Shown: one piece after another, positions 9,708 to 62,074 of the stretch
Layout: each line of letters opens with the position of its first letter
Numbering within the stretch: position 1 is the first letter of the stretch
Source: an uncultured Elusimicrobia bacterium
GTDB taxonomy: Bacteria; Elusimicrobiota; Elusimicrobia; UBA1565; UBA9628
Length of the DNA: 64,000 nt
NCBI GenBank assembly: GCA_964358485.1
Contig: CAYHPY010000004.1
Span: forward strand, 10,796-74,795
Reading direction: 5' to 3'
Notes under the pieces: model-generated
Databases searched by the model: none
Told to the model about the DNA's origin: nothing
Seen by the model: the letters and a program-made list of their open reading frames with translations, nothing else
Made by a program: the position numbers and the translations under genes

Positions 9708-9981
9708 CCGCGAAAGGTTCGTGGACCGCCTCGTGTCCCGGCTCTTGGGGACCGGGGTCGCCGTCAGCGGTCTGCTGTTGGCGGCGGGCCTGTTCACGGC
9801 CGCGCCGATGGGCGAACGCCTTCTGCACTGGGGAATCGTTTTGCTCATCGCGACCCCGGTGTCCCGGGTCGTCCTGTTGGCCGGCGCGTTCGCGGCCCAA
9901 AAAGAGTGGCGGATGTTCTGGGCCAGCGCGGGCGTTCTTGGGCTACTGGCGGCGGGGGCGTTGACGGGAGCCGGCCACTAA
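9700..9981 (+). CDS. small membrane protein (DUF1634-like TauE partner)
   Basis: A 93-aa protein with two TM helices. It overlaps the TauE gene by 8 nt, the common TauE-DUF1634 arrangement. Confidence 0.55.
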   Translation: MADRERFVDRLVSRLLGTGVAVSGLLLAAGLFTAAPMGERLLHWGIVLLIATPVSRVVLLAGAFAAQKEWRMFWASAGVLGLLAAGALTGAGH

Positions 9982-10961
9982 AACCGGTAGCCCAACCAGA
10001 ACCGGTTGGTCGAGCCGATGTCGCCGAAGGGGACCCAGGCGTAGTCGATGAAAAACCGCTCGAAATCCAGGCCGGCCCCGAGGGCCAGGCCGGAGAGGCC
10101 CTCGACTTTCCGGGAGTAGCGGAGGTTGTAGCCGCCCCGAAAGAGCGCCTTCCAGGGTTTGGGCCGCTGAAGGGGAACGTGGCCCTCCAGGCCCATGGTC
10201 AGGTAAGGGTCGTTGTCCACCGGGAGGTTGTAATCGAACGCGGTCTTCAAATACGGGGTGGTGTGCCACAGAACCCCGGTGCGGATGTGAAAAGGAAGTG
10301 GATCTGATTCCTGCCCCAGCTTGAGAGGGCTTCCCAGGTTGAATACGCTGCAACCCACGTCCACGGGGCCGTCCCCGGCCTCGGTCAGCCGGAGAAACTG
10401 CGCCCCGAAATCAAAGGCGACCGCGGAACCGGACACGTTGTCGATCGAGGAGCGGATCACCTTGGCGCCGCCGCCAAGCAAGAGGCGGCCCAGCGCGCCC
10501 GCGTAGGCCGCCGACAGGGCCATGTCCCCGGCGGAAAAAGATCCCGCGGAATCGCCGAGGGCGTTGTAGGCGGTCTGTTCGGACTGCGAAAAATACACGA
10601 ACCCCAGCCCCAACGCTCCTTTTCCCAACGGCGCCGCGTAGGCCAGGGCCCCCGAGTGCGCCCCTTCCAGGAGATTGTTGTATCCGATCCCCGCCTCGGA
10701 AAGCGCCGGAGCGGGCCGCCGGGCGAGCCCCGCGGGGTTGAAAAAAACCGCCTCCGCGCCCTCGGCGCCTCCGGCGGCGACCTCCGCCATTCCCATGCTT
10801 CGGGCCCCCGGAGGCGACTTCAGAAAAGCCGCGCCCACCGAGCCGGCCGCTTTCCGCGAAAACGCGCCGTCGGGAAACATCGCGGCCTGGGCGGCGAAAG
10901 GAAACGCCAGGCAGAAACCGGCCGACGAGATCAGGCCGAAGGGGGAGAGTCCGGATTTCAA
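9978..10961 (-). CDS. PorV/PorQ-like (FadL-like) outer-membrane beta-barrel, paralog 1
   Basis: A signal peptide is followed by the N-terminal motif SMGMAEVAAGGAEGAEAVFFNPAGLA. The protein has alternating beta-strand character and ends in the aromatic terminus GYRF. It is a paralog of ORFs 42534..43541 and 61067..62074. Confidence 0.7.
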   Translation of the reverse strand: MKSGLSPFGLISSAGFCLAFPFAAQAAMFPDGAFSRKAAGSVGAAFLKSPPGARSMGMAEVAAGGAEGAEAVFFNPAGLARRPAPALSEAGIGYNNLLEGAHSGALAYAAPLGKGALGLGFVYFSQSEQTAYNALGDSAGSFSAGDMALSAAYAGALGRLLLGGGAKVIRSSIDNVSGSAVAFDFGAQFLRLTEAGDGPVDVGCSVFNLGSPLKLGQESDPLPFHIRTGVLWHTTPYLKTAFDYNLPVDNDPYLTMGLEGHVPLQRPKPWKALFRGGYNLRYSRKVEGLSGLALGAGLDFERFFIDYAWVPFGDIGSTNRFWLGYRF

Positions 10962-12055
10962 ATCGGCCAGACCGGGCCCTTGCGGGCGGGCTTGGCTTCC
11001 GACGCGTCGGCCGGCTTCTCTGAGAGAGACTCGAGGACCATCGGCGTCGGATTCGGAAGCTTGACGGTGGCGTCGGGATTCTTGACCGGAGCGGGAGGAG
11101 GAGGAGGCGGCGGGGGAGGCGGCTCGATCGAAAGGGCGGGGGGCGCTTCTTCTGTCGGGGGCTTTGCGACCAGCCCGGCCAGGGCGGGAGGAACGTCCAA
11201 TTGGATGGACATGGAGGATTCGGGTTCGGCGGCCTTGGGAGAGTTGGGCTCGGGGACCGCTTCGGGCAGGGAAGACCCCGCCATGAGAGCGTCCAACGGC
11301 GCCCCATGGGGCCGGGCGTCCATGTCTCCCAGAATATCCGCGGCGGGAGCGGCGGGTTCCGGAGCCTTCATCGGAAGATCGAAGGAGGGGACATCGGGCG
11401 CGGAAGCGGGCGGCTCCGCGGGAGCGGGGGCGGGGGCGGGAGCGGGGGCGGAGGCAGGCGTGGCCGCGACGGGCGCGGGGGCCGCCGGCGCGGGCGCCAG
11501 GGCGGCAGTTTTGACTTGCGAGGAAAGTTCCTCGAGCTTCTTGAGGATCAGGCTATCCTGATTTAGGAGCCCCGCCTGCTGACTCTCCTGCTTGGTGAGC
11601 AATGTCTTGATCACCGCCACTTCCTTGTCCAGGCGGTCAAGCTGGGATTTGATGTTCTGCATGTAGACCACGGCCGGACTAATGCCGCCGGTTGTGTTTT
11701 CGGCTTTTTTCTGGCCGGCGGCGGCGGCCGCCGTCGCATCGGGCGCGGGCGCGGGCGCAGGCGCGGGTGCCGGTGCCGGTGCGGGCGACGGAGCCTTGAT
11801 CGGCGCAGGAGCGGGAGCAGGCGCCGCGGCCGGAGCCGTGGGCGGGAGCACCAAGGTCTTTTCAATCGCGGGCGATTTCACCGCGACGGGCATGAGCGGA
11901 GGAAGCGGGAAGGACTCGGGCTCGTGCGAATCCTGCCGCTCCGGAGCGCCGGTCGCTTTCTTATATTGGCTGAGGAGATATACGAAAAGCGCGGAACTGA
12001 CGCAGAAACCGAGGGCGGAAACCCAGAACCAAGCGTCCTTGATGAGGTTGGCCAT
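10958..12055 (-). CDS. membrane-anchored Pro/Ala-rich coiled-coil protein (hypothetical)
   Basis: It has an N-terminal TM helix (WFWVSALGFCVSSALFVYLL) and long (PA)n tracts. A central heptad coiled coil reads LDRLDKEVAVIKTLLTKQESQQ. It overlaps the downstream barrel gene by 4 nt. Confidence 0.55.
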   Translation of the reverse strand: MANLIKDAWFWVSALGFCVSSALFVYLLSQYKKATGAPERQDSHEPESFPLPPLMPVAVKSPAIEKTLVLPPTAPAAAPAPAPAPIKAPSPAPAPAPAPAPAPAPDATAAAAAGQKKAENTTGGISPAVVYMQNIKSQLDRLDKEVAVIKTLLTKQESQQAGLLNQDSLILKKLEELSSQVKTAALAPAPAAPAPVAATPASAPAPAPAPAPAEPPASAPDVPSFDLPMKAPEPAAPAADILGDMDARPHGAPLDALMAGSSLPEAVPEPNSPKAAEPESSMSIQLDVPPALAGLVAKPPTEEAPPALSIEPPPPPPPPPPAPVKNPDATVKLPNPTPMVLESLSEKPADASEAKPARKGPVWPI

Positions 12056-12117
12056 GGAAAGTCCATGGTATCGGAATTGCCAAAGGATGTCAAGAAATTT
12101 GCTATTCTGGCCGCGCC

Positions 12118-13590
12118 ATGAAATTGATCCTCGCCCTCTTGCTCACCGGGCCCGCCTCCGGAGCTCCCAAGCCTTTCCCGGGAGAAAATTGCGTCCGCTG
12201 CCACGCCGCGTTGAGGGACAAGGTCCCCGGCCCGGCGGCTTCCAAGGCTCCGACCGACGCTGGGACCTACGACGCCGTCATCATCGGGGGGGGGCTCAGC
12301 GGCCTTTCGGCGGGCCACTTCCTTAAGAAGCGCAAGCTCCTCATTCTGGAGGCGGAATCCAAGCCGGGGGGACGCGCGCGCCGGGAATCCTTCGGGGCGA
12401 ACCGGAAGTACCCGACCGGGGCGGTCTACACCTCCGAGCCTTACGGGGCGATCAAAACGCTATACGACGATCTCGGGCTCAAATCCAAGGTCATCACCAT
12501 GACGGCCCACAGCCTTTACAGCCAGGGCAAGGTTTTCGAGCATTGGCTCCGGGCCGACGGCAACGGCCTGCCGGAAAACTCCTTCACCCCCGAGGACCGC
12601 GCGGCCTACAAGCGCCTGAGCGCCAAGATGAAGGAGCTCGTCGAAACCCACGCGCTCACCATCCCGATCGAGGAAGCCCCGAAAAGCGCCCTGGACGAAT
12701 ACGACTCGATCTCGTTCTGGGATTACCTGGAAAAAAATTACGGCAAGCGCCTGGCCGAGGTCGGGGACATCTACGCCCGCGACGTTTTCGGCGACGGCGC
12801 CCGGGAAGTCTCCGCCTACGCCGGCCTTACCTACCTGGCGGTGGAGCAGGACGTCAGCAAAACCTGGGAGGGCGGCATGGGCGAGATCCCGGAAGCCCTG
12901 CATCGGGAGCTCGGAAAATCGGTGAGAACGGGGGCCTTAGTCTGGAAGGTCGCCCAGGACGCGGAGGGAGTCGACGTCTTCTACTCAAAGGACGGGAAGG
13001 ACTTCAAGGCCCGGGGGAAAACCGCCGTCATGGCCGTCTCCTCCTTGGTCGCCCGCCGGATCGTCGCGGGCCTGCCCGAGGACAAACTCAAGGCCATGGC
13101 CCAGACCCGTTATTCCTCCTACGCCCTGGTCCCCTTGAAGCTGAAAAAAGTGGTCTGGGCCGATTCCTTCGTGTTGTGGATGCGGGACGCCTTCGTCACC
13201 GATTTCACCTTGCCCCGGGCCGACAACGCGTCCCTGAAGGCCCACCCCGAGAAGGGCCAGGTCCTGGTGGGCTACGCCCCCATGGGGGGGGCGGCGGGCC
13301 GGAAATACCTGCTCGCGGCCCCGGATGAAGAGCTGAAGTCCCGGGCGATCGCCGACCTGGAGCGGGCTTTTCCCGGAGCGTCCTCGCAGGTCGAGGAAGC
13401 GCGGGTGATCCGGTGGGGGCACGCGATGCCCTTGGCGTTTCCAGGTTATCTGGCCCAAGTCCGCCCGATCATCGCCCGCCCCGAGGGGCGTATTTTCTTC
13501 GCGGGGACCGACACTCAGCTTCCCGCCATGGAAGGCGCGATCTACTCGGGATTTTACGCCGCCGAAAAGGCGTCGGCTTTGCTCAAATGA
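12118..13590 (+). CDS. secreted FAD-dependent amine oxidase-family flavoprotein with N-terminal CxxCH (putative heme c) motif
   Basis: A signal peptide is followed by ENCVRCHAAL, then a GxGxxG FAD fold (YDAVIIGGGLSGLSAGHFL) and amine-oxidase-like C-terminal motifs (IFFAGTDT...EGAIYSG). Confidence 0.75.
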   Translation: MKLILALLLTGPASGAPKPFPGENCVRCHAALRDKVPGPAASKAPTDAGTYDAVIIGGGLSGLSAGHFLKKRKLLILEAESKPGGRARRESFGANRKYPTGAVYTSEPYGAIKTLYDDLGLKSKVITMTAHSLYSQGKVFEHWLRADGNGLPENSFTPEDRAAYKRLSAKMKELVETHALTIPIEEAPKSALDEYDSISFWDYLEKNYGKRLAEVGDIYARDVFGDGAREVSAYAGLTYLAVEQDVSKTWEGGMGEIPEALHRELGKSVRTGALVWKVAQDAEGVDVFYSKDGKDFKARGKTAVMAVSSLVARRIVAGLPEDKLKAMAQTRYSSYALVPLKLKKVVWADSFVLWMRDAFVTDFTLPRADNASLKAHPEKGQVLVGYAPMGGAAGRKYLLAAPDEELKSRAIADLERAFPGASSQVEEARVIRWGHAMPLAFPGYLAQVRPIIARPEGRIFFAGTDTQLPAMEGAIYSGFYAAEKASALLK

Positions 13591-15821: not shown

Positions 15822-15837
15822 GCTATAATCGCCCCTC

Positions 15838-18106: not shown

Positions 18107-18141
18107 CGGCGCGACCTCCCCGCCCCGCGGCCTAATTAAGG

Positions 18142-18171: not shown

Positions 18172-18178
18172 CAAGGCC

Positions 18179-18862: not shown

Positions 18863-18866
18863 ATTA

Positions 18867-18915: not shown

Positions 18916-18919
18916 CAAT

Positions 18920-31185: not shown

Positions 31186-31189
31186 CTTT

Positions 31190-39831: not shown

Positions 39832-42537
39832 ATGCTTTCCGCTCCATTCCGGGCCGCGATTCTCCTGTTTTTCCTGTCGACCCCGCGGGTTTGGGGGGCC
39901 CCGAGCGCGCCCGTGCTTTCCACCGGAACGGCCGTGGGGACGACCTCGATCCTCTGGAACTGGACCGCCCCCTCGGACCTGGCGGCCGTCTGCCCGACGG
40001 GAACCCAGACCTACACCCTCTTCGACATGGCCACGGGCCTTCCGGTCACCTCCGTCCTGCATCCTTCCGTTTCCATCCAGGAGAACTTCGGAGGTCTCCC
40101 CAACACCCGCTACGTCCGCGGCGTGAGCGTGGCGTGCAGCTGCCTGGGCTGCGGCACCAGCCCCCTGTCCAACAGCTCGACCATCTACTCTTTGGCCGCC
40201 GCGCCCGCCAATCCGGGCGCCTCCTCGGTCTCGACGGGCACCATCGTCCTCAACTGGAGCGCCAACTCCAATCCGTCCTACACCCGCTACGAAATCACCC
40301 TCTCGACGATCAGCTACGCGCTCGGAGTCACCTCCCCGGTGGTTTACACCGACAACCTCACGCTGAGCACCAAGGCCTTCACGACGCTGAGCCCCGGGAC
40401 CACCTACTTTTTCCGGATCCGCTCCTTCAACGGCAGCGCGGCCGACGCCTCCGGGGCGCAATTTTCCGCGCTGACGAGCACCGACATTCCGACTCTGCCC
40501 GACCGGGCGGTCGCGGCGGGCACGGCCCTCTCGACCGGCTCCCTGCGCTGGACCTGGAACCTGGTCCAAGGAGCCACGGGCTACCGCGTCTATTCCAATT
40601 CGGGCGAGTTCATGGCCGACGGCCCCATCGTGGCCGTCAGCTCAGGCGGGCTGGCCGCCAGCGCCGGCTACGGGATTCAGGTCGAAGCCTACAACCGTTC
40701 CGGGGCCGGGCCCCGGGGCACGGCGTTCGCCTTCACCAAACCCCGGACCCCGATCAATTTCTCGATCGTCTCCGCCGACACCAACACCATCGGCATCTCC
40801 TGGGACGCCGACGGCAACGCCGCGGGGACCTTTTACGAAATCTACACCGCCCTCGATCCCGCGTTTCTCTCCCCGATCGCCACCAACACCGTGACCCAGA
40901 CCAGCGCCTCCCTGGGAGGGCTGTTCCCGGGAAGCACCTACTACGTGCGCCTGCGGGCGCTCAACGGCGGGCAGCTCGCCTCGGCCTTCACCGCCATCCG
41001 GTCCACGGTCACCCCCGTGACGGCCGGTCTCAGCCAATCGACGGCCCCGGCCTCGCCCTACGCCACCGTCGGCACCACCATCGGAATCTGGCATCTGGAC
41101 GCCAGCTCCGGAACGGCGGCCGTCGACGCCGGATCCTTGAGCAACGCCGGGACCATGACCTGCCAGGGGCAGGGCTGCACCTCGACGCCGACCTTCACGA
41201 CGGGCCTGACGGGAATGGGCAACGCCGCCTCATTCAGCGGAGTGCCCAACGCCATGGTCCGGATCGCCAGCCTCCCGGCCTATGACTTCACCGGGGCCAT
41301 CACGGTCAGCGCCTGGGTCCGCCCCGCCACCGCGTCCCAACCCCTGGGCGCGGCGATCGTCGCAAAAGGCACCGGGACCTACGAATCGTTCGCCCTGGAC
41401 ATCTCCTCGAGCTCCTCGGGCTCGCGCCATTTCCGCTTTTTGGTGACCGGACCCGGGGGAGCGGGCCCCGTCACCTATGTCGCCGTCGCGACCTCCGCGA
41501 TCCGGGCCGGTCAATGGGACCATGTGATCGGCGTTTACACCCCGGCGGGGACCCCGAGCGTCAAAATTTTCGTCAACGGGTCCCTTTCGAACACGAACGC
41601 GACGGGGGTGGCCGCGTCGAGGGTCGTCTCCCGGGCCCCGATCACGATCGGCAGCCGGCAGTCCGCGGCATCCTCCTACGACCTCTCGTTGACGGGCGCC
41701 GCCGACGAGATCCGGATCCTGGACCGGGCCTTGACCGATTCCGAGGCGGCCATCGAATACCGGTCCGGCTTTCCGGGGGCGGTCGCCCCACCCTCGGCCA
41801 ACGGCCGGCTGGTCCTGTCCATCCCGCCCAACGCCTTCAACGGGACGGCGGTGGTCTTCTTTTCCGCCGACCCCCTGCGCGAACCGGTCCGGTCCGCCGA
41901 CAATTTCGTCTCCCAGGGCCTGGCCATCCTGCCCACGACCCAGACCTTGATTCCCAACTCCCTGATCGAAATCGTCCCCACGATCAACGGAACTCCCTAC
42001 GCGGGGGACCTAGGATCGACGGCCACCCTCACGGTCCCCTACACCGACGCGGACAACGACGGCACGGTCGACGGCACCTCCCCGCCGATCTCCGCCTCAT
42101 CGCTGAAGCTTTACCGCCTGGAGACCACGGTCCTGCGCTGGGTGGAACTGGCGACGACGGTGGACACCGCCAACAAATTGGTCACCGGCCAAACCACCCA
42201 TTTCTCCGTCTTCGGCCTTTTCGGAGCCAGCTCTTTCGCCACCGCCCTCTCCCAGGCCCGGGTCTATCCCTTGCCCTGGAAACCGGGCTCGGGCACGCGT
42301 TTTGACGCGGCCGGACTGATTTTCGACGGCCTGGGGACCAGCGGGTCCATCCGGATCTACAACCTGGCGGGCGCCGAGGTGGCCCATTTCTTCTTCGGGG
42401 TCGCGGACCAGGGGCGCAAAACCTGGGACGGCCGCAATCGGGATGGAATTCCCGCCGCCAGCGGGCTCTATTTCGCGGTGGTCCGCGGGAGCTCCGGAAA
42501 CGACACCGCGCTTTTGAAATTCATTCTGGAACGATGA
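39832..42537 (+). CDS. large secreted surface protein: fibronectin-III repeats + LamG/ConA-like lectin domain + C-terminal T9SS-type (Por_Secre_tail-like) sorting domain
   Basis: A signal peptide is followed by repeated FN3-like units (W.W motifs) and a LamG-like block (WHLDASSG...GAADEIRILDRAL). The C-terminal ~80 aa read RVYPLPWKP...IRIYNLAGAEV...WDGRNRDGIPAASGLYFAVV. Confidence 0.7.
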   Translation: MLSAPFRAAILLFFLSTPRVWGAPSAPVLSTGTAVGTTSILWNWTAPSDLAAVCPTGTQTYTLFDMATGLPVTSVLHPSVSIQENFGGLPNTRYVRGVSVACSCLGCGTSPLSNSSTIYSLAAAPANPGASSVSTGTIVLNWSANSNPSYTRYEITLSTISYALGVTSPVVYTDNLTLSTKAFTTLSPGTTYFFRIRSFNGSAADASGAQFSALTSTDIPTLPDRAVAAGTALSTGSLRWTWNLVQGATGYRVYSNSGEFMADGPIVAVSSGGLAASAGYGIQVEAYNRSGAGPRGTAFAFTKPRTPINFSIVSADTNTIGISWDADGNAAGTFYEIYTALDPAFLSPIATNTVTQTSASLGGLFPGSTYYVRLRALNGGQLASAFTAIRSTVTPVTAGLSQSTAPASPYATVGTTIGIWHLDASSGTAAVDAGSLSNAGTMTCQGQGCTSTPTFTTGLTGMGNAASFSGVPNAMVRIASLPAYDFTGAITVSAWVRPATASQPLGAAIVAKGTGTYESFALDISSSSSGSRHFRFLVTGPGGAGPVTYVAVATSAIRAGQWDHVIGVYTPAGTPSVKIFVNGSLSNTNATGVAASRVVSRAPITIGSRQSAASSYDLSLTGAADEIRILDRALTDSEAAIEYRSGFPGAVAPPSANGRLVLSIPPNAFNGTAVVFFSADPLREPVRSADNFVSQGLAILPTTQTLIPNSLIEIVPTINGTPYAGDLGSTATLTVPYTDADNDGTVDGTSPPISASSLKLYRLETTVLRWVELATTVDTANKLVTGQTTHFSVFGLFGASSFATALSQARVYPLPWKPGSGTRFDAAGLIFDGLGTSGSIRIYNLAGAEVAHFFFGVADQGRKTWDGRNRDGIPAASGLYFAVVRGSSGNDTALLKFILER

Positions 42538-43541
42538 GACCCGAACGATCGCCGCGCCCGCGCCGGAAAACGGCCTTGCTGGCCGCGCTGCTGCTTTGGG
42601 GGCCGGGCCCGGCGGGAGCCGCCTATAAAAAAACGGACTCCGGGACCACGGTCGGGCAGTTTTTGAAGCTCGGGGCCGACGCCCGGGCCGCCGGCATGGG
42701 CCAGGCCGCCCGGGCCTTGGCCGAGGACGCCACCGCGGTCTACTGGAATCCCGCCGGGCTGGCGGGGCTCCAACGGAGGCACGCCACCGTGACCCACGCC
42801 GTCTACCTCCAGGATGTGTTTTACGACTTCATGGCCTACGCCCAGCCCGTCGAGTCGGTCCTCGGACGGGGGGTGCGCGAGCGGGAACTGCGGACCAGCC
42901 CGCTGGGCTCGATCGGGGTCGGCGTGATGTATCTCAACTCGGGACGGTTCGGAGAGCTCGACAACACCGGCGCACAGACCGGAGCGACCTTCATTCCCCA
43001 GGACCTGGCCGTGATGGCCGCGTGGGGGGGGAGCGTGACCCGGAATCTGGACCTCGGCCTCGGGGTCAAATACATCGCCTCCCGCATCCACGCGGCGGCC
43101 GCGACCGGAGCGCTCGACGCGGGAGGACGCTGGCGCTGGAAGCTGCTGGGGCGCCCGGCGGTCTTCTCCTTCAGCGTCCACCATGTCGGCGGCAATCTCC
43201 GCTACAACAATTCCGAGGAGACGCTCCCGACCACCGTCAGCGGGGGCGGAGCGTTGAAACTGACGCGGGATTGGTCGTTGGCGGCCGAATTGTTGGCCCC
43301 GCGCGACGGACGGATCTACGGGGTGGTCGGCACCGAATTCCGCTGGCGCTTCGACGGGGATTCGGCGGCGACCCTGCGGGCCGGCTACAACGGCCTTGCC
43401 AGCTCCCGGGAACTGGGGGGATTTACCGCCCTGACCGCCGGGGGAGGCTACCAGGCCAAGCGCTATGGGGTGGACTACGCCTGGACTCCGTTCGGGCGGC
43501 TGGGAGACATTCACCGCTTCACCCTCTCCTTCAGTTTTTAA
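42534..43541 (+). CDS. PorV/PorQ-like outer-membrane beta-barrel, paralog 2
   Basis: AAGMGQAARALAEDATAVYWNPAGLA ... C-terminal YAWTPFGRLGDIHRFTLSFSF. It overlaps the upstream surface-protein gene by 4 nt. Confidence 0.7.
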   Translation: MRPERSPRPRRKTALLAALLLWGPGPAGAAYKKTDSGTTVGQFLKLGADARAAGMGQAARALAEDATAVYWNPAGLAGLQRRHATVTHAVYLQDVFYDFMAYAQPVESVLGRGVRERELRTSPLGSIGVGVMYLNSGRFGELDNTGAQTGATFIPQDLAVMAAWGGSVTRNLDLGLGVKYIASRIHAAAATGALDAGGRWRWKLLGRPAVFSFSVHHVGGNLRYNNSEETLPTTVSGGGALKLTRDWSLAAELLAPRDGRIYGVVGTEFRWRFDGDSAATLRAGYNGLASSRELGGFTALTAGGGYQAKRYGVDYAWTPFGRLGDIHRFTLSFSF

Positions 43542-50229: not shown

Positions 50230-50257
50230 CTTAACAGCGATAAGGTATGATTCGACG

Positions 50258-51699: not shown

Positions 51700-51711
51700 T
51701 ATACTGTCTTT

Positions 51712-52176: not shown

Positions 52177-53828
52177 AGACCGATGGTGCCCCAGGCTGGA
52201 CCGCCCTTCAAAACGCGAATTTTTCGGAACGGCTCCGCGGGAAAGATCCGTCCCTCTGGTCCGCCGAAAAGGCGGCCCAGAAATCGATCCGCAACAGCCT
52301 GGGCTGGGTGACGGTCCCCGAGGCCATGGCGGCCGGCCTGGGAACGATCCGTTCCTTCGTCTCCGAGGTTCGCTCCGCCGGCATCCACGACGCGGTCGTG
52401 CTCGGGATGGGGGGCTCGAGCCTGGCCTGCGAGGTCTTCCGCTCAGCCTTTCCCGCCGTCCCCGGAATGCCCCGCCTGCATGTCCTGGACACCATCAGCC
52501 CCGGAGCCGCGGCAAGGCTGGAGCGGGAGTTGGACCTGGCCCGGACCCTGTTCATCGTTTCCAGCAAATCCGGCTCCACCATCGAACCGAACTGCCTCCT
52601 GGCCCATTTCGAAAAGCGCGTCGAACGCCTCCCCGGGCCCTCCGGGGCGCGCTTTTGCGCCATCACCGACCCGGGAACCTCCCTGGAAAAATACGCCCGG
52701 GAACGGAATTTCCGCAAAGTCTTCCTCAATCCCGCCGACATCGGAGGGCGCTATTCCGCCCTTTCTTATTTCGGGCTGGTCCCCGCGGCCCTCATGGGAG
52801 TCGAAATCGAGCGGCTCCTGGATCACGCCCGCCGGGCGATGCGCCAACCCGAGGAAGGCCTGCGCCTGGGAGCGGCCCTCGGCGACGCGGCCCGGGCGGG
52901 ACGAGACAAGCTCAGCCTCTCCACCTCCCCGAAGCTGGCGGCTTTCGGGCTCTGGGTCGAACAGCTCGTCGCCGAATCCACCGGCAAGCAAGGCCGCGGC
53001 ATCCTGCCGGTCCTGGAGACGCCTCCCGAAAATGACCCGGGGGACCGGCTCTTCGTCCGCGTGGCGCTGGAGGCCGACGCCGACCCCGAAGGGAAAAAAC
53101 GATTGTCCGCCCTCCTGGGATCGGCCCCCGCGCCCACGCGCTTTCTCCTTTCCGACCCCCACGAGCTCGGGGCGCAATTTTTCCTTTGGGAGGCGGCGAC
53201 CGCCGCCGCGGGTTATCTGCTCGAGGTCAATCCCTTCGACCAGCCCGACGTCCAAAGCGCCAAGGACCGGACCAACGCCCTTTTGGGAAACCTGGAACGG
53301 GGAAAACTGCCCGCCGACAAGCCTTCGTTCCAAACGGCCGGCATGGCCGCGTTCGCCGATTCCGAGTTGTGCGGGAAATTGGAATCGGCGCCGGACGCTA
53401 CCTTGGACTTGGGCAAGGTCCTCCAGGCCCACTGGGGGCGCCTGAAGGCGGGGGACTACGGAGCGGTGCTTGCCTTCCTGGACCCCGATGCCGAGAATTT
53501 GGGGCTTCTGGAGCAATTGCGCGCGGCCTTGGCCCAAGCCGGGCCGGCGGCCGTCACCTTGGGCATCGGCCCCCGCTATCTGCATTCGACGGGCCAACTG
53601 CACAAAGGGGGCAACGCCCGGGGCGCGTTTTTGCTGATCAACGAGACCTCCCCCGGCCGCCTCGAGGTCCCGGGAAAATCCTTCGATTTCGGAACCCTCC
53701 AGCAGGCCCAGGCGCGGGGGGATTACGAGGCCCTTCGCTCGGCGGGGCGCCGGGTACTCCGGCTGGACCTGGACCGGACCAAGGACGGCCTGCGGGCCCT
53801 GATCAACGCGGCGGGGGGGAAAGGATGA
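52173..53828 (+). CDS. pgi: glucose-6-phosphate isomerase (PGI family)
   Basis: The start MKTDGAPGW is inferred (ATGA overlap with rpiB). The SIS/PGI motifs VVLGMGGSSL and FIVSSKSGSTIE are present. The 5' part of the 962-aa track ORF is read-through. Confidence 0.8.
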   Translation: MKTDGAPGWTALQNANFSERLRGKDPSLWSAEKAAQKSIRNSLGWVTVPEAMAAGLGTIRSFVSEVRSAGIHDAVVLGMGGSSLACEVFRSAFPAVPGMPRLHVLDTISPGAAARLERELDLARTLFIVSSKSGSTIEPNCLLAHFEKRVERLPGPSGARFCAITDPGTSLEKYARERNFRKVFLNPADIGGRYSALSYFGLVPAALMGVEIERLLDHARRAMRQPEEGLRLGAALGDAARAGRDKLSLSTSPKLAAFGLWVEQLVAESTGKQGRGILPVLETPPENDPGDRLFVRVALEADADPEGKKRLSALLGSAPAPTRFLLSDPHELGAQFFLWEAATAAAGYLLEVNPFDQPDVQSAKDRTNALLGNLERGKLPADKPSFQTAGMAAFADSELCGKLESAPDATLDLGKVLQAHWGRLKAGDYGAVLAFLDPDAENLGLLEQLRAALAQAGPAAVTLGIGPRYLHSTGQLHKGGNARGAFLLINETSPGRLEVPGKSFDFGTLQQAQARGDYEALRSAGRRVLRLDLDRTKDGLRALINAAGGKG

Positions 53829-54421: not shown

Positions 54422-54431
54422 AATCAGGCCG

Positions 54432-55082: not shown

Positions 55083-55199
55083 GCCCTCCCTAGGCCCTCC
55101 CGAAAACGCCCCTTGCCCGGTTATTGATTCTGTAACACGACCCTGGTAAGCTTATTCTCAGCGCCCACCGCTCCCGTCTCAGGGAGCTCCGGGCCATCT

Positions 55200-58100
55200 A
55201 TGCGAGGATTTCAATTTGGGCGGACCGGGCTCTTTTTGGGGCTGTTGTCCGCCCTACTCTGCGCCCAGGCCTCTAGGGCCTCCGCCGCCGTCTTCGCCGA
55301 CCGCTACTCCCACTCCTCGACCCTCCTGGCCGATGGAAACATCCTGATCGCGGGCGGTTTCGTGGGCGGCGCCGCCTCCGGCAATACGCAGCTGCGGGTC
55401 GACATGCGCGACACCTACCTCAATCTCGCCCCCATGGCCGTCGCCCGGGCCTCTCACACCGCCACCTTGCTGCCGGACGGGCGGGTCCTGGTGGCCGGCG
55501 GTTTCGACGGAGCCGTCGCCGTCACCGGCGCCGAATTTTACAACCCGGTCACCAACGCCTGGACCGCGGCGGGAGCCATGAACAACGCCCGCTACAACCA
55601 CACCGCCACCCTGCTTCGAAACGGAAACGTCCTGCTTTGCGGCGGCCAAACCCAGACCGGGGCGCTCCAAGCGAAGTGCGAAATCTTCAACATCACCACG
55701 GGCTTTCAGGCCGCCGGCAGCGTGCCGGACATGCTCACCCCCCGCACTCACCACACCGCGACCCTCGTCGAGGGCGGGCGCGTCTTCTTCACCGGGGGCT
55801 TCAGCGCCGCCGTGACCCCCAATTACATGCCCCTGTCCGAGGTCTTCGATTCCACCGCGGTGGCCACCGGGGCCAACTGCGTGGCCGGGGTGGGCTGCTT
55901 CATCCCCGCCCGCCCTTTGAACGAAGGCCGGGCCTACAATACCGCCACCTCGATGGGAAACGGGAAGGTCATGATCGCGGGCGGCTATTCCGGGCGCGAG
56001 CGCGATGGGAGCCGGGGCTACCTGGAAAGCACCGAGATCTACGACCCGATCGCCGATTCGATGATCACCGCCCCCGCCTTGAAGACCCGGATGATGGGCC
56101 ACACCGCCACCATGTGGAATGACGGGCAAATGCTCGTCTACGGAGGCCTCGGAAACATCACGACCACCTACTTGACCGGGGGCTACACCATCAACAACGG
56201 AAGCCTTCTGACCGGGCGCTTCGTTCTCCCCAGCGGCGCGGCCGGTTCCCTTTCCACGATGACCGTCCCGGCCGCGGCCACTCCTTCCGTCATCTCCGTG
56301 ACCATGGATTTCCCGCTTTCGGTCCCGGTCACCGGGAGCATCCATCGGGGACGGATTCTGTTCTCCACCCCCTCGATCACCTTCCCGGACGGGGTGGCCT
56401 ATCTGAATTGGGCGACCTCGGGAACCCTCACCAACGGCCTCCAGGCCGATCTCGCGGGAGTTCGGGTGGGGTGCACCCCCACCGGAACCTGCGGGAAAAT
56501 CACGGAAACCTTCCTTCTAAAGCAGATTACCGGGGTCTACGCGATGCGGGACCGCGCCACCTCGGTCTACCAATTCTTCGCCACCCAAGGCTCCTTCACC
56601 TTCATCGGCGGGAACATCACCCCCACCTCCCCGGCCCGGACCGTGACCGACGGCTACATCCACGGACCGGTCCAAATCCCCGTCCCCGGGGATTACATCG
56701 GAGCCAGCATTTCCAGCGGAACCTTCACCATCACCAGCGGCAGTTTCGCCAAGCTTTCGACCGGAACCGTCAGCATGATCCAGGGGGGCTACCTGGTCAT
56801 TCCCGCGGGGACGACGATCGTCGCCGATCCGACCGTTCCGGGGGGGGGCATGATCAGCCTCGCCTCGGGGGATTTCAACCGCATCATCGGCACGGTGGTG
56901 GGAAACGGCGCCGTCGAGTCGGCGTCTTCGGTCCAATGCGTTCCCGACGGGGCGACGGCCCCGGGCTGTTCGAACGTCTCCTATGTCAGCACCGTGGCGT
57001 TTTCCGCCTCGGGGAATTTGAAATTCGTGGTCGACCGGATCGACCTTTCCGGGAAGTTCCTGAACGTGGACAAATCGACGGTCATCATCGAGTCCATGGT
57101 CTTCAGCGATTTGCAAAAATTCTCCCCGAAAGACAATCAGTGGGCCGTCACCGCCGAGGGCCGCGGGGCGATTTCCCAATTCAACCACACCGCCGTTTTG
57201 TCGCCCACCTCCTCAATCAAATTCCTGGGCGGCCGCACCTGCGACAACACCGGCACCTGCGCCGTCCTGGTCGCCACCTCCGCCACGACCCTCCTGGGAA
57301 AGCTCGATACCTGGACGGCCGGCGGCAATATGGCCAACCCCCGCGGCCACCACACCGCCACGGTCCTTCCGACCGGGAAGGTCCTTGTGGCGGGGGGCAC
57401 CGACGGCCCCAACACCTGGGCCAGCGCCGAACTCTACAACCCCACGAGCCGGACTTTCGCCGCGACCGGTTCGATGAAACACGCCCGGGACCTGCACACC
57501 TCCAGCCTCCTTCCCAGCGGGCGGGTCCTGGTGGCGGGGGGTTTCTCTCCCGGAACGGCCAGCACGGGCGCCACCAACACCTCCGAAATATACTATCCCG
57601 ACTCCGCCGTCTGGATTCCCACCTCGGTCATGATCTCCTCCCGGGACAGCCACACCGCCACCGTCCTGCCCGACGGCAACGTCCTGGTGGCCGGGGGCTA
57701 CAACCGCGGGGTCTACCAGAATACCGCGGAAATTTTTTACTCCACGGCGGGGGTCTGGCGGCAGATCGCCAACATGCCGAACCGGCGGGCCAATCACACC
57801 GCCACCCTCCTGCCCAGCGGGGAGGTCCTCCTTTACGGGGGCATCAACGAGACGGGGGTGCTGGGCGCGCCGGTGTCCTACAATCCGATCACCGGCCTCT
57901 GGTCGGCCCGCACCAACACCACCTTCACGATCAACCGCACCTATCACCACACCGCCACCCTGCTTCCCAGCGGAGAGGTGCTCTTCCTGTTCGGCAACGA
58001 CGGGACGGGAACCATGGGAGTGGGTCAGCCCTATTTCCGCGAGATCTACGATCCCCTCTCCGACCTCTGGAGAACGGCCGCCGCTCAAGACATCGAGGCC

Positions 58101-61070
58101 GCCTTCAACCAGACCGCCACCCTTTTGCCCAACGGAATCGTTTTGATGACGGGCGGCGCGCACACCGCCATCGGGTCCGGCGAACTGGCCGACAACCGGG
58201 TCATCACCTACGACGTGACCGCGAGCGCATTCGTCACCGCCCAGGTCATGGGGACCAAACGGGCCTATCACACCGCCACCTTGCTGCCGGACGGCCGGGT
58301 GGCGGCCATCGGCGGCTACAACGGTTCTTCCTTCATTAATTCCAGCGAATCCATCTATTTTACCGGCGGTCCCGACAGCGCGATTTCCGCGACCGCGCCG
58401 AGCCTGCGCCAGCCCTCCATTACCACCGCGAACATGACCCTCTTCCGGGGCGGGGATTCGGTGACGATCCGGGACAAGAACCTGCTCCGCGTCCTGGAGG
58501 GCAGCGGAGGCGGAGCCACCAGCCAATCCTCCCATTCCCACCCCCGCCTCATCCTCCAAGCCCTGGATTCCTCCGGCGGCACGGGGTCCCAGGGCCAAAG
58601 CGGGTTCTTGATCGATCTGACGACCCGGATCTACCAAACCGCCAACATCCCCGGTTCGACCCCCAACAATTGGGCCTCCATCATCGGCACCGATCTGGTC
58701 AACTCCTCGATCACGGTCCGCATGCCCGAACTGTCCACGGGATTCCAATTCTCCACCGCCATGCCCAACGGCTATTACCACATGAGGTTGGTGGCCAACG
58801 CGGTCTACTCCGACAGCCTCCTGGTCCGGGTCGGCCCGCTCCTGCCCGCGGCCGTGACCCAGGCCACCGGAACCGTGCTCTCCAGCACCACCGTTTTCTG
58901 GACCTGGCCCAAGACCGCCTTGGCCGACGAAAGCGGCTACAACATCTTCTACGCCACTTCCGGGATCTTCATTTCCTCCATCCCGGTTCCCACCGGGGCC
59001 GACAGCGCCTCCTACCTTCAAACCGGCCTGGTCCCCAACACCACCGCGGCGCTCATGGTTTCCGCCTTCACCCTCACCGGGGACGGTCCGCTCACGACCT
59101 CGGCCACCACCTACACCCTTTCCACCGCCCCGGTGAGCGTCTCGTTTTCCACGGTCAACGTCAACGACCTGGTCCTTTTCTGGAACCCCAACGGCAACCT
59201 CCCGGGCACGATCTACGAGGTCTCGATGTCCTCCGACGATCCCTCCTCCAACGGCAAAAACCCGTTCACCACCTCGATCTCCACTCCGGTCTCCACCACC
59301 TTCAACTTCATTAAAACGACCGCCACCATCGACAACCTCACGGAAAACACCACCTATTACTTCCGGGTCCGGGCCTGCCGGGGCCACACCATCCTCTCCT
59401 GCGACCCGATCAACCTTTCGAATTTCAGCTACATCTCCTCGGCCACCACCCGCTCCCAGGTCCAAGGCCTCACCGGGACCCCGTGCGCCACGCCCAACGG
59501 CACCACCTGCATCAACTGGACCTGGTCCCCCATCGGCCCCGCCCTGAAGTACCGGGTCTACAACGCCACGACCGGCGTCCGCCTGGACAACGACAATCTC
59601 TCCCAGGCGTCCTTCAGCGACGTCAGCCTGGGGACCAACTGCCCCCGCGCGGTCCGGGTCAGCGCCGTGACCCCCGCCGGGGAAGGACCGCTCTCGCTCT
59701 CCACCACCCGCTACACCTTGGCCGCCATGCCGGGATTGGTCTCGCCGACCTTGACCACCTTGACCTCGGGGACCATCACGGGGCGGTGGGACACCAACGG
59801 CAATCCCCCGAGCGGCAACTCCTGCAACCCCGCGGGAACCACCTACCTGCTCTCCGTCTCCTCGACCTTCTTCGTCACGAGCACGACCAATTCCGTCGTC
59901 CAAACCGGCCTGGGCCTCATGAGCCTGGGCATGGGGAATCTGCCTCCCGCGGAGATCTACGGCGCGACCGTGTCGGCCGTCAACGGCGACGGGCTCGCCT
60001 CGGAATTCTCACGGGACCTGGGTTCCACGGCCACCTGGGCGGTGGAGCCCACGGGCCTGGCCATCACCGGCGCCAACCTGGATTCCGTATCCCTGGCTTG
60101 GTTGTCCAACGGCAACGCCTCCTCGGCCACCTATCAGGTCACCTACTCCACCGACGATCTCGCCGGCAACGGCCTCAATCCGTTCGCCCGCCACATCGCC
60201 ACGGACGCGGCGGCCAATTTCGCCGCCGGGTTCACCGGGCTTTCGGCGACGGTCAGCGGCCTGGACACCAACAAGAAGTACACCTTTCGGGTGCAGGCCC
60301 GCAACACCAGCGGGATCACGACGAATTTCTCCAACCAGGTGGCCACCACCACCCCGAGCGGCGGCGCGGTGACGGGTTCCATCGCCGGAACCCTGAAAGC
60401 CTCCGCGGACTCCGCCGTCACCGGCTCGGTGGGCTCGCCGACGGTGCGGACCGTTTCCCTGAACGCCCCCGCCGGGGCCTTCTCTTCCGACGTGACGGTG
60501 ACCCTTTCGTCCCACGCCTTCAACACCAGCCTTTGCGGCAACACCACCGGGGCCGGAGTTTCCATCTCGGTCAATCCGCCGCTGCAGCCCGTCAAACCCC
60601 TCGTGTTCACCATGACCTACACCACCGCCCCCGTCAACGAGCTCGGGGACATGCCGGCCAACCGGGTGACCCTCCTGCGCTGGGATCCGGTCGCCGCCAA
60701 ATGTGTTCCGATGCCGACGAGCGTCGATCCCCTGCAGGGGCTCATCACGGCGACTCTCAATCACCTTTCGATCTTCGTCCTGGGCCAGGTGGTGCCGTCC
60801 GGGTCGGTGGACACCGCCCGGGTCTTCCCCAATCCCTTCTTCCCGTCCTCCGACAGCTACATCACCTTCGAATTGCTCCCCGCCTACGCCCAGGTCCGGA
60901 TTTGGACCCTCCGGGGAGAGCTTGTGTTCGAGCGCACGGCCGGCGCGACCGGCACCCTGACCTGGAACGGAACCAACCGCTGGGGCAGGGCGGTCGCCAG
61001 CGGGGTGTATTTGGCCACCATCCAGCTGGGCAACGAGAAAAAAATTCTAAAGCTGGTGGTCCTGCGATGA
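55200..61070 (+). CDS. giant (1956-aa) secreted Kelch-repeat beta-propeller / FN3 surface protein with C-terminal T9SS-type sorting domain
   Basis: A signal peptide is followed by more than 12 Kelch-like repeats (HTATLLPDGRVLVAGG pattern) and multiple FN3 units. The C-terminus reads RVFPNPFFP...VRIWTLRGELVF...WNGTNRWGRAVASGVYLATI. Confidence 0.75.
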   Translation: MRGFQFGRTGLFLGLLSALLCAQASRASAAVFADRYSHSSTLLADGNILIAGGFVGGAASGNTQLRVDMRDTYLNLAPMAVARASHTATLLPDGRVLVAGGFDGAVAVTGAEFYNPVTNAWTAAGAMNNARYNHTATLLRNGNVLLCGGQTQTGALQAKCEIFNITTGFQAAGSVPDMLTPRTHHTATLVEGGRVFFTGGFSAAVTPNYMPLSEVFDSTAVATGANCVAGVGCFIPARPLNEGRAYNTATSMGNGKVMIAGGYSGRERDGSRGYLESTEIYDPIADSMITAPALKTRMMGHTATMWNDGQMLVYGGLGNITTTYLTGGYTINNGSLLTGRFVLPSGAAGSLSTMTVPAAATPSVISVTMDFPLSVPVTGSIHRGRILFSTPSITFPDGVAYLNWATSGTLTNGLQADLAGVRVGCTPTGTCGKITETFLLKQITGVYAMRDRATSVYQFFATQGSFTFIGGNITPTSPARTVTDGYIHGPVQIPVPGDYIGASISSGTFTITSGSFAKLSTGTVSMIQGGYLVIPAGTTIVADPTVPGGGMISLASGDFNRIIGTVVGNGAVESASSVQCVPDGATAPGCSNVSYVSTVAFSASGNLKFVVDRIDLSGKFLNVDKSTVIIESMVFSDLQKFSPKDNQWAVTAEGRGAISQFNHTAVLSPTSSIKFLGGRTCDNTGTCAVLVATSATTLLGKLDTWTAGGNMANPRGHHTATVLPTGKVLVAGGTDGPNTWASAELYNPTSRTFAATGSMKHARDLHTSSLLPSGRVLVAGGFSPGTASTGATNTSEIYYPDSAVWIPTSVMISSRDSHTATVLPDGNVLVAGGYNRGVYQNTAEIFYSTAGVWRQIANMPNRRANHTATLLPSGEVLLYGGINETGVLGAPVSYNPITGLWSARTNTTFTINRTYHHTATLLPSGEVLFLFGNDGTGTMGVGQPYFREIYDPLSDLWRTAAAQDIEAAFNQTATLLPNGIVLMTGGAHTAIGSGELADNRVITYDVTASAFVTAQVMGTKRAYHTATLLPDGRVAAIGGYNGSSFINSSESIYFTGGPDSAISATAPSLRQPSITTANMTLFRGGDSVTIRDKNLLRVLEGSGGGATSQSSHSHPRLILQALDSSGGTGSQGQSGFLIDLTTRIYQTANIPGSTPNNWASIIGTDLVNSSITVRMPELSTGFQFSTAMPNGYYHMRLVANAVYSDSLLVRVGPLLPAAVTQATGTVLSSTTVFWTWPKTALADESGYNIFYATSGIFISSIPVPTGADSASYLQTGLVPNTTAALMVSAFTLTGDGPLTTSATTYTLSTAPVSVSFSTVNVNDLVLFWNPNGNLPGTIYEVSMSSDDPSSNGKNPFTTSISTPVSTTFNFIKTTATIDNLTENTTYYFRVRACRGHTILSCDPINLSNFSYISSATTRSQVQGLTGTPCATPNGTTCINWTWSPIGPALKYRVYNATTGVRLDNDNLSQASFSDVSLGTNCPRAVRVSAVTPAGEGPLSLSTTRYTLAAMPGLVSPTLTTLTSGTITGRWDTNGNPPSGNSCNPAGTTYLLSVSSTFFVTSTTNSVVQTGLGLMSLGMGNLPPAEIYGATVSAVNGDGLASEFSRDLGSTATWAVEPTGLAITGANLDSVSLAWLSNGNASSATYQVTYSTDDLAGNGLNPFARHIATDAAANFAAGFTGLSATVSGLDTNKKYTFRVQARNTSGITTNFSNQVATTTPSGGAVTGSIAGTLKASADSAVTGSVGSPTVRTVSLNAPAGAFSSDVTVTLSSHAFNTSLCGNTTGAGVSISVNPPLQPVKPLVFTMTYTTAPVNELGDMPANRVTLLRWDPVAAKCVPMPTSVDPLQGLITATLNHLSIFVLGQVVPSGSVDTARVFPNPFFPSSDSYITFELLPAYAQVRIWTLRGELVFERTAGATGTLTWNGTNRWGRAVASGVYLATIQLGNEKKILKLVVLR

Positions 61071-62074
61071 GGATCTCCCGCCTCGGCCCGCTCGCGGCTC
61101 TGCTCCTGGCCCTGGGAAGCTCGGCCGCCTTCGCCCGCCGACCCCCGGAATTCTCCCGGGATTCGGTGGGCACCACCGGGTCGGAGTTTTTGACCATGGA
61201 CGTCGGGGCCCGCGGCATCGCCATGGGGGGGGCTTACTCGGCCCTGACCGACGACTCCAACTCCCTTTATTGGAACCCCGCGGGTCTGTCGCGGATTCCG
61301 AGGATGTCGGCGTCCTTCACCTATTCCCATTACCTGGCCGATATCTCCTACCAGTCCGGCTCGGTCGCCCGGCGCTTCACCGATTACGGGGTGCTTGGGG
61401 TGGGCTGGCGCTACATGGACATCGGGGAACTCGATCGCGTGGACATTTCCGGCGTCAAAAAAGGCATCTTCCATCCCCGGCACTATGTGGGTGAAGTCGG
61501 CTGGGGCCAGGCCGTCCTCGATCAATCCGACAGCGAAATGGACCTCACGGTCGGGGGGACCATCCGCTGGATCCACTCCGACCTGCTTCTGCACGCCGAC
61601 GGCTTCGGGGGGGACCTGGGCATGCAGTCCCGGTTCTACAAGGGCTCGACGATCTACGATTTCGGCGCCGTCCTCCAAAACCTGGGGCGCGGGCAGAATT
61701 TCAAAAGCGAACGGGACACTCTCCCCTTCCGCATGAAGGTCGGGGCCGCGGTTTACCCGGTCAAGAACCTGGCCCTGTCGGTCGAGGGATTCTTCCCGAT
61801 CTACTCCTATCCCCACGCCGGGGTCGGAGTCGAATACGGGGTCGAACTGCAAAAGGGAATTCGAGTGGCCCTCCGGTCCGGCTTCAACAGCGCGACCATC
61901 GAGAGCCTCGGCGCGCTTTCCACCATGAACATGGGCCTGGGGCTCAAGGTCTCCGATCTCAGCTTCGATTACGGCTTCTCCCCCATGGGAGTCCTTGGGA
62001 CCAACGTCGTCCACCGACTGACCTTCAGCTACAATCTTCCGTCAAAATCCTCCAAACGATATAGGGAGAGATGA
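61067..62074 (+). CDS. PorV/PorQ-like outer-membrane beta-barrel, paralog 3
   Basis: MRISRLGPLAALLLALGSSAAFA is the signal peptide. It carries MDVGARGIAMGGAYSALTDDSNSLYWNPAGLS and an ATGA overlap with the giant protein gene. The start may be at 61067 or 61070 (±3 nt). Confidence 0.7.
   Translation: MRISRLGPLAALLLALGSSAAFARRPPEFSRDSVGTTGSEFLTMDVGARGIAMGGAYSALTDDSNSLYWNPAGLSRIPRMSASFTYSHYLADISYQSGSVARRFTDYGVLGVGWRYMDIGELDRVDISGVKKGIFHPRHYVGEVGWGQAVLDQSDSEMDLTVGGTIRWIHSDLLLHADGFGGDLGMQSRFYKGSTIYDFGAVLQNLGRGQNFKSERDTLPFRMKVGAAVYPVKNLALSVEGFFPIYSYPHAGVGVEYGVELQKGIRVALRSGFNSATIESLGALSTMNMGLGLKVSDLSFDYGFSPMGVLGTNVVHRLTFSYNLPSKSSKRYRER

Follow-up and report, generated by a model that had tools for sequence, protein, structure and literature searches.

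The stretch of DNA analysed here, referred to as the window, is 64,000 nucleotides (nt) of chromosomal DNA from a member of the Elusimicrobiota, with a G+C content of 66%, and it carries three genes for outer membrane (OM) β-barrels of the PorV/PorQ family, each overlapping the 3′ end of a different upstream gene. In two of these pairs (pairs 2 and 3) the upstream gene encodes a large cargo protein ending in a C-terminal domain (CTD) related to type IX secretion system (T9SS) sorting domains, and across other genomes the CTD and the barrel are conserved as neighbours and diverge together. A first-pass annotation, made from the sequence alone, had viewed all three pairs as one recurrent cassette, a dedicated module of a cargo and its cognate barrel for export or surface anchoring. 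That view is supported for pairs 2 and 3 by synteny, by the frequency of the pairing, by co-varying distances and by an inversion through which the pairing persisted; it does not extend to cassette 1, where the partner is of another kind.

The barrels and their upstream partners

The three barrel open reading frames (ORFs) exist as first listed (Table 1) and are paralogues sharing 27–30% pairwise identity, each with a signal-peptide-like N-terminus. Residues N70, P71, A72 and L74 are invariant among them, lying in the WNPAGL segment that corresponds to the NPA hatch motif of the FadL family, and further columns are common to the three. Against the NCBIfam model of the PorV/PorQ family (NF033709, cut-off 90 bits), barrels 1, 2 and 3 score 122.7, 136.9 and 145.5 bits, and their orthologues and paralogues in other loci score 155–253 bits. 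No equivalog cut-off is reached: the same barrels score 77.9, 78.4 and 97.6 bits for PorQ (NF033711, cut-off 220 bits), 34.3, 58.5 and 66.9 bits for PorV (NF033710, cut-off 250 bits) and 23–56 bits for PorV2 (cut-off 325 bits), a model for whose subject no real description was found in the literature. PorQ is the highest-scoring of these three models for every barrel. The Pfam PorV model (cut-off 27 bits) is passed by barrel 2 alone, at 28.6 bits, and the Pfam FadL/Toluene_X model (PF03349, cut-off 29.7 bits) is matched at 18.0 bits by barrel 2, at 17.1 bits by barrel 3 and not at all by barrel 1; a match to the Pfam model UPF0164 is likewise weak and below its cut-off. The PorP/SprF models (PF11751 and TIGR03519) gave no match to the barrels at E ≤ 0.1, and neither Pfam nor NCBIfam detected POTRA, Omp85 or two-partner secretion features in barrels or cargos.

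Structural comparison points the same way. When a profile of the barrels was searched against all PDB sequences, PorV was the sole match (E = 4.9e-20), in an alignment that covers PorV residues 25–236 and 335–395 and leaves ~100 PorV residues without a counterpart. The AlphaFold2 (AF2) model of barrel 3 has a mean pLDDT of 91.7 and a pTM of 0.86 and is all-β beyond residue 80; its closest structures by Foldseek are the PorV chains 8gl6_F and 6h3i_F of SprA–PorV translocon complexes, substrate-bound and free, at TM-scores of 0.68–0.69, followed by FadL and TodX at ~0.5 and weakly by CdiB at 0.43. With a curated family model, a PDB profile match and a predicted fold behind it, the identification of the barrels is sound, and the kinship to PorV that the first-pass annotation had suspected is upheld over that to ordinary FadL transporters. 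The family assignment itself is not new, as the Prokaryotic Genome Annotation Pipeline (PGAP) already names these barrels ‘PorV/PorQ family protein’.

An aromatic C-terminus, at first ascribed to all three barrels, is present in barrels 1 and 2 (...YRF and ...FSF) and missing from barrel 3, which instead continues beyond its last strand into a conserved basic tail, NLPSKSSKRYRER (NLPxKxSxRYRER, the final 13 codons). In the barrel-3 clade the tail NLP[AS]K.S.R.RER stands in for the usual aromatic C-terminal residue and would be expected to face the periplasm. Homologues are numerous, with more than 290 for barrel 3 (50–90% identical among those listed), more than 450 for barrel 2 (the named ones from Elusimicrobia/Elusimicrobiota) and ~16 orthologues of barrel 1 at ≥44% identity in Elusimicrobiota. 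Those with a named source are mostly ‘PorV/PorQ family protein [Elusimicrobia/Elusimicrobiota bacterium]’, and a few other candidate phyla appear among the weakest barrel-1 matches.

The start of each barrel gene overlaps the upstream stop codon by 4 nt in all three pairs, within the 1–4 nt first reported; the same overlap is seen at most orthologous loci, and −4 or −1 nt is the commonest junction across loci. The upstream genes are less uniform than was thought. A large exported protein precedes barrels 2 and 3, whereas barrel 1 follows a membrane-anchored protein without a CTD. Cargo 2 matches the Pfam families Laminin_G_3 (81.9 bits) and fn3 (72.6 bits), and cargo 3 matches Kelch_4 (148.7 bits) and fn3 (86.8 bits).

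Table 1. Positions of the three gene pairs, their junctions and sorting domains, and one conserved downstream gene (window coordinates; aa, amino acids; TM, transmembrane)
Feature	Position	Strand	Description
Barrel 1	9978..10961	-	327 aa, PorV/PorQ-family outer-membrane β-barrel; TTG start
Junction, pair 1	10958-10961	-	TTGA
Barrel-1 partner	10958..12055	-	365 aa; N-terminal TM helix, Pro/Ala-rich linkers, short coiled coil
Cargo 2	39832..42537	+	901 aa; signal-peptide-like N-terminus, fn3, Laminin_G_3, C-terminal sorting domain
CTD of cargo 2	42256..42534	+	aa 809-901; VYP[LV]PWKPGSG...KF[IA][LI]ER subtype
Junction, pair 2	42534-42537	+	ATGA
Barrel 2	42534..43541	+	335 aa, PorV/PorQ-family outer-membrane β-barrel
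Cargo 3	55200..61070	+	1956 aa; signal-peptide-like N-terminus, many Kelch repeats (β-propellers), fn3, C-terminal sorting domain
CTD of cargo 3	60816..61067	+	aa 1873-1956; PorZ-type / type A-like, ends KILKLVVLR
Junction, pair 3	61067-61070	+	ATGA
Barrel 3	61067..62074	+	335 aa, PorV/PorQ-family outer-membrane β-barrel
Conserved downstream gene	62071..63636	+	521 aa; Pro-rich N-terminus, VPLTPMMDF..RRLE.LE.EL motif, long coiled coil

Both cargos had been credited with T9SS-type tails, which for cargo 3 can be seen directly: its CTD, at 24.9 bits, exceeds the cut-off of the type A model TIGR04183 (23 bits) and scores 51 bits against the PorZ model NF052228, over model positions 669–755 of 757. 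The CTD of cargo 2 on its own stays weak (FlgD_ig 22.2 bits against a cut-off of 27, CHU_C 15.4 bits, TIGR04183 13.9 bits against 23, PorZ model 24.1 bits) and is recognised at the profile level only, where it aligns with the other members of an alignment of 23 pair CTDs; its subtype recurs upstream of related barrels. The profile of these 23 CTDs aligns end to end with the CTD of Porphyromonas gingivalis PorZ (5m11_A 674–758, E = 1.3e-13), and more weakly with the CTDs of type A substrates captured in the translocon (8glk_D, 9e-4), with PorU (3e-3) and with FlgD Ig-like domains. Taken singly, the 23 match the Pfam families CHU_C (14/23), FlgD_ig (13/23) and Por_Secre_tail (8/23), mostly under cut-offs, and matches to NF052228 are always confined to the CTD region (positions ~663–755 of 757). 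The type B CTD model TIGR04131 gave no match at E ≤ 0.1. PorU is not among the eight upstream partner proteins that were scanned; in the six Elusimicrobiota cargos among them T9SS-related matches fall within the CTD region only, and the two partners from the Fibrobacterota–Chlorobiota–Bacteroidota (FCB) group have none.

Generality and co-divergence of the pairing

A barrel alignment was scanned against one genome per species, yielding 80 loci. Most are from Elusimicrobiota, which the NCBI lineage ranks as a separate phylum and which is placed outside the FCB group; Sumerlaeota, Caldisericaceae, Rhodothermales, Bacteroidota, Caldithrix, Ignavibacteriales, Zixibacteria and Krumholzibacteria are also represented. 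A seed hidden Markov model (HMM) of the CTD, built from 7 tails of two orthologous groups and run on the C-termini of the ORFs called in all loci, matches 92 of 3159 C-termini, and 61 of the 92 belong to the ORF immediately upstream of the queried barrel, a pairing far beyond chance. When the iterated CTD HMM is applied to barrels whose upstream sequence runs to 1 kb or more, a CTD ORF lies directly upstream of 44 of the 50 Elusimicrobiota barrels and of 25 of the 35 in other or unlabelled phyla. The extra CTD ORFs in Elusimicrobiota flanks are all 1–1857 nt from some barrel, and in the window itself only two CTD ORFs were detected, each followed by a barrel.

What lies ahead of the CTD varies among pairs, including Kelch, LamG/TafC-like, NHL/ScyF-like and OmpL47-type domains, delta-60 and SBBP repeats and β-helix, in proteins that reach at least 3319 aa; the constant part is the CTD-plus-barrel unit. 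Over 68 pairs the barrel and CTD distance matrices are correlated at a Pearson r of 0.78, which 0 of 2000 Mantel permutations reach, and for pairs whose barrels are <40% identical r is 0.39. This shows that barrel and CTD are inherited and diverge as a unit, co-divergence alone being no proof of contact.

All three pairs recur in other Elusimicrobiota, and for the two with CTDs the synteny is conserved as well, neighbourhood conservation being one of the checks named in the first-pass annotation. In the Elusimicrobiota loci L001, L003 and L007–L020, the barrel-3 orthologue has upstream of it a full-length orthologue of cargo 3, at 31–45% identity. Two metagenome-assembled genomes (MAGs; GCA_016194705.1 and GCA_016218575.1) have a Kelch/fn3 protein of 1870–1993 aa and then a barrel-3 orthologue with a 4-nt overlap, in the same context as in the window: a fused transaldolase–phosphoglucose isomerase (TAL-PGI), a HAD hydrolase and an AMPK1_CBM protein upstream and a coiled-coil gene downstream. 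Pair 3 keeps its place beside central-metabolism genes in the Elusimicrobiota genomes examined and is likely to be among the core components of the envelope in this little-known phylum.

Orthologues of cargo 2, at 38–44% identity, adjoin barrel-2 orthologues in L005, L006, L030, L032, L040, L048 and L055. The conserved context of pair 2 consists of Opp permeases, an AMP-binding enzyme and a CCA/poly(A) polymerase upstream and of an epimerase, an M17 peptidase and GTP cyclohydrolase I downstream. In this context the barrel-2 orthologue follows a LamG/fn3 protein of 1275–1674 aa. Window cargo 2 aligns with the C-terminal ~880 aa of its orthologues in the seven loci (1302–1735 aa) and is without their N-terminal 400–870 aa, a part that includes the first Laminin_G_3 domain according to precomputed annotations of the orthologues. 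The L032 orthologues of cargo 2 (40% identity over 901 aa) and barrel 2 are convergent and lie 104 nt apart, so that they remained neighbours through an inversion. The region L032:4451-16223 as a whole reads cargo, barrel, barrel and then the convergent cargo-2 orthologue, and L022:8076-15785 packs three barrels and two proteins with CTDs into 8 kb, with one barrel-before-cargo order.

A related arrangement occurs at FCB-type loci (L054, L063, L064, L068, L070, L072, L075, L077 and L081), hosted by Bacteroidota, Rhodothermales, Caldithrix, Ignavibacteriales and one Caldisericaceae MAG (~6.4–11 kb in each locus), where a conserved CTD protein of ~1100–1400 aa lies directly upstream of a generic PorV/PorQ-family paralogue, with gaps of −1 to +121 nt. 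Rhodothermales, Caldithrix and Ignavibacteriales count as T9SS-bearing groups alongside Bacteroidota. The CTD of this protein ends in GKFAVIK and is homologous to the window CTDs. The FCB-type loci differ from the Elusimicrobiota pairs in having one conserved upstream orthologue, whereas Elusimicrobiota carry multiple copies of the module, with passengers of diverse kinds; the Bacteroidota hosts of the FCB-type loci belong to a phylum with a described T9SS. That the protein might be PorU, in an ordinary porU–porV operon, was considered and rejected, as no PorU, C25 or other Pfam or NCBIfam family was matched. The L064 locus also encodes an FG-GAP/CTD protein, ~6 kb upstream, and has an Amidase_2/CTD protein immediately downstream; ORFs resembling these two in size and position, the only features compared, recur at the other FCB-type loci.

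Pair 1 and other genes of the window

The partner of barrel 1 has no CTD and passes no Pfam or NCBIfam family. In three other genomes (L087:7255-8004, L088:7156-7938 and L089:6916-7911) the barrel-1 orthologue is immediately preceded by the gene for a homologue of 249–331 aa, and the family conserves the TM helix, a TGGISPAVVY[LM]QNIK segment and the extreme C-terminus R[RK]GPVWP[VI]. The terminal GPVWP[VI] motif is retained even where the partner and barrel genes are 62–90 nt apart, and it is therefore conserved at the protein level. Barrel 1 and its partner are genuinely paired, and conserved as such, in a module distinct from pairs 2 and 3. As an inner-membrane-anchored protein, the 365-aa partner would be long enough to span the periplasm; its GPVWP[VI] peptide, to speculate, probably contacts barrel 1 from the periplasmic side, and the pair is possibly an envelope-spanning tether between inner and outer membranes. 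Among metagenomic relatives of barrel 1, P0268, P0270, P0282, P0286 and P0290 have N-terminal TPR repeats fused to the PorV-family barrel, and P0259 and P0262 match CsgG/TolB-like domains, so that further architectures for binding partners exist within the barrel family.

About 1.4 kb from cassette 1 and on the opposite strand is an 802-aa ORF (13413–15821, +) with CARDB/DUF11-like repeats and a C-terminal caspase domain (Peptidase_C14, clan CD), whose listed start is probably too far upstream. Caspases of family C14 and the C25 family of PorU and gingipains belong to the same peptidase clan; this ORF has no PorU similarity and no CTD.

Barrel 3 is followed by a further gene that was not listed in the first-pass annotation, the fourth in this account (62071–63636), whose start overlaps the barrel-3 stop through another ATGA. 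No signal peptide or TM segment was seen in the 521-aa product and no Pfam family matched it. It is 37% identical over 545 aa to the gene following the barrel in L001 and 66% identical over the N-terminal 108 aa to that in L003, and homologues of 309–547 aa follow barrel-3 orthologues in 12 other loci. Upstream of pair 3, the ORF at 50940–53828 (+), whose relatives are annotated as TAL_FSA + PGI fusions of 931–942 aa, has kept its place in other Elusimicrobiota genomes.

Between the three cassettes, the window genes that were scanned with Pfam and NCBIfam are of the ordinary housekeeping kind, among them Opp/OPT transporters, M17 peptidase, GTP cyclohydrolase, TAL-PGI, SpoIID and a carboxyltransferase. 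A peptide-uptake cluster upstream of pair 2 (27572–34701, +), comprising an OPT oligopeptide transporter, three tandem SBP_bac_5 genes and Opp-type permeases, is partly syntenic in relatives.

Proposed cognate anchoring and its alternatives

The statement in the first-pass annotation that the pairs match no described system was too strong, as two precedents are known. PorZ and PorU of P. gingivalis are T9SS substrates with uncleaved CTDs, and the PorQ barrel holds PorZ on the surface in a sub-complex that assembles without PorU or PorV (PMC10947112). Substrates with type B CTDs have a cognate porP/sprF-like barrel gene directly downstream, the barrel being required for secretion and anchoring (PMC12618676, PMC9143113).

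With PorQ–PorZ, pairs 2 and 3 would share the dedication of a PorV/PorQ-family barrel to one CTD-bearing surface protein and, by analogy, a CTD that is kept as anchor, as it is in PorZ; window-type CTDs are closest to that of PorZ, and the barrels score higher for PorQ than for PorV. They differ in that the window barrels fall below the PorQ equivalog cut-off, that beyond the CTD the passengers bear no relation to PorZ, that there are many pairs per genome rather than one and that the phylum lies outside Bacteroidota. The cargo and barrel genes of the window pairs are moreover adjacent and overlapping, whereas porQ and porZ are not known to be adjacent in P. gingivalis. The genetic logic of the type B systems (SprB–SprF, PG1035–PorP) is identical, with the cognate barrel gene directly downstream of the substrate gene, one barrel per substrate apart from some orphans and shared barrels, and the barrel proposed as surface anchor; however, the window barrels are of the NF033709 PorV/PorQ family and not PorP/SprF, their CTDs are PorZ/type A-like and of ~85–95 aa where type B CTDs have 150–235 aa, and the host phylum is not Bacteroidota. 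PorV (6h3i, 8gl6; PMC10994853) has the same fold and family as the window barrels, is their nearest solved structure and binds Ig-like CTDs, but it is a single shared carrier that passes substrates to PorU for CTD removal, its chains have 367–402 residues against ~305 mature residues in the window barrels, and the latter fail its equivalog cut-off (34–67 against 250 bits). The layout of one barrel per cargo argues against a shared carrier of the PorV type. The first-pass premise that PorV is a single shared shuttle is correct for PorV itself with type A CTDs and incomplete for the family, as Bacteroidota and their relatives carry PorV-family paralogues downstream of CTD proteins.

Pairs 2 and 3 thus combine the precedents, having a PorZ-type CTD, a barrel more PorQ- than PorV-like and the type B gene order, and they are therefore proposed to be cognate anchor pairs; on balance, the comparison tips slightly in favour of their being surface-anchor modules of the PorQ–PorZ type. 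In such a module, cargo and barrel would be made from one transcript with translation coupled through the ATGA overlap, giving roughly one barrel per cargo. Both would be exported by Sec, the barrel would insert into the OM, and the cargo would cross it through a SprA/Sov-like translocon, should the phylum possess such a machine, or else by another route. The Ig-like PorZ-type CTD of the cargo would then dock, uncleaved, on its own PorV/PorQ-family barrel, leaving the passenger exposed at the surface and using up the barrel as a permanent, non-covalent anchor of one protein rather than as a recycled shuttle. Under this proposal, each cargo would have its own barrel gene, and barrel and CTD would diverge together, because the barrel is a permanent anchor.

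Several points weigh against this proposal. The term PorQ-like is a relative statement only, since the PorQ cut-off is missed (78–98 against 220 bits). No CTD ORF lies upstream of 6 of the 50 Elusimicrobiota barrels, barrel 1 among them, and some loci have other orders, such as a barrel before its cargo or two barrels in tandem. Co-inheritance of adjacent genes could yield the Mantel correlation without physical interaction, the locus sample is centred on barrels and under-samples CTD proteins distant from any barrel, and the passing of TIGR04183 by the cargo-3 CTD leaves room for cleavage by a PorU-like sortase.

How the cargo would cross the OM would depend on the T9SS core. No core gene was found by Pfam and NCBIfam in a scan confined to the window, and there to its ORFs except several smaller ones; none of the partner proteins scanned is SprA/Sov, PorL/M, PorK/N or PorU, and the window yielded no C25 peptidase. 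With the core present, the pairs would belong to a T9SS with many specialised PorQ-like anchors. Tentatively, and with clearly less confidence than is given to anchoring itself, the non-FCB lineages (Elusimicrobiota, Sumerlaeota, Caldisericota) may lack SprA and PorKLMN, with the CTD protein and its cognate barrel forming a free-standing display or export module.

Of the competing explanations, the one that fares best is a self-contained two-gene export system, in which, in the manner of two-partner or autotransporter-type secretion, the PorV-family barrel itself translocates the upstream protein or co-opts the β-barrel assembly machinery (BAM), and it is judged unlikely. It takes as its premise that these phyla have no SprA or PorKLMN, which agrees with the occurrence of the pairs beyond the FCB group, in Elusimicrobiota, Sumerlaeota and a Caldisericaceae MAG, with the lack of a core gene among the window ORFs scanned and with the literature searched, in which nothing was found that links Elusimicrobia or Elusimicrobiota to T9SS, PorV or core components; a survey of groundwater Elusimicrobia genomes makes no mention of secretion or the OM. 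Strict one-to-one pairing with translational coupling would also suit it. However, absence of the core from Elusimicrobiota is a premise and not a result, β-propeller-rich cargos of 900–3300 aa are unlikely to pass through a barrel that is small, of FadL/PorV type and fitted with an N-terminal NPA hatch, no POTRA or Omp85 features were detected, and the same pairing is found in loci of Bacteroidota, a T9SS phylum (PMC12618676), and of Rhodothermales, Caldithrix and Ignavibacteriales.

Somewhat less probable still is a canonical T9SS in which the barrels are specialised shuttles that are recycled, a PorU-like sortase removing the CTD and the cargo being released or attached to lipopolysaccharide. 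The passing score of the cargo-3 CTD for type A and the matches of the CTD profile to cleaved type A substrates and to PorU are in keeping with this, as are the specialised shuttles encoded directly downstream of type B substrates (PMC12618676). The uncleaved CTD of PorZ is nevertheless the best match by ten orders of magnitude, recycling needs no gene copy per cargo with coupled translation, and neither PorU (0/8 scanned partners) nor a C25 peptidase in the window was encountered. A coincidental FadL-type channel for hydrophobic substrates, whose adjacency to secreted proteins would be meaningless, has the weak FadL/Toluene_X (17–18 bits) and UPF0164 matches and the structural neighbours FadL and TodX to speak for it, and is rejected as essentially excluded, given a FadL score under 29.7 bits where 3/3 barrels pass the PorV/PorQ family, adjacency kept at 44/50 and 25/35 barrels and through the L032 inversion, and barrel divergence that tracks that of the CTD.

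For cognate anchor pairs of the kind proposed, no description was found in the searched literature of the systematic one-cargo-one-barrel organisation with PorZ-type CTDs, of the multiplication of the pairs in Elusimicrobiota or of their occurrence in several non-FCB lineages. The T9SS has been stated, in reviews and primary papers including PMC12618676, to be confined to Bacteroidota or the FCB group. T9SS-type sorting domains with PorV/PorQ barrels, in many copies per genome, are here found in a phylum outside that group, which reopens the question of the origin of the system's surface-attachment parts. The finding also bears on Bacteroidota-type genomes, where a conserved, unannotated CTD protein of ~1100–1400 aa that is not PorU precedes a generic PorV-family paralogue. 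The pairs form a natural library, with dozens here and hundreds in databases, in which the passenger varies while CTD and barrel co-diverge, and this suits the reading of the specificity code by which PorV-family barrels recognise CTDs, whether of type A, type B or PorZ type. Should the T9SS core prove to be missing, the pair would amount to a new and minimal system of display or secretion, and a free-standing module, if true, would represent a secretion route not yet described or else the ancestral unit of the attachment and shuttle components of the T9SS.

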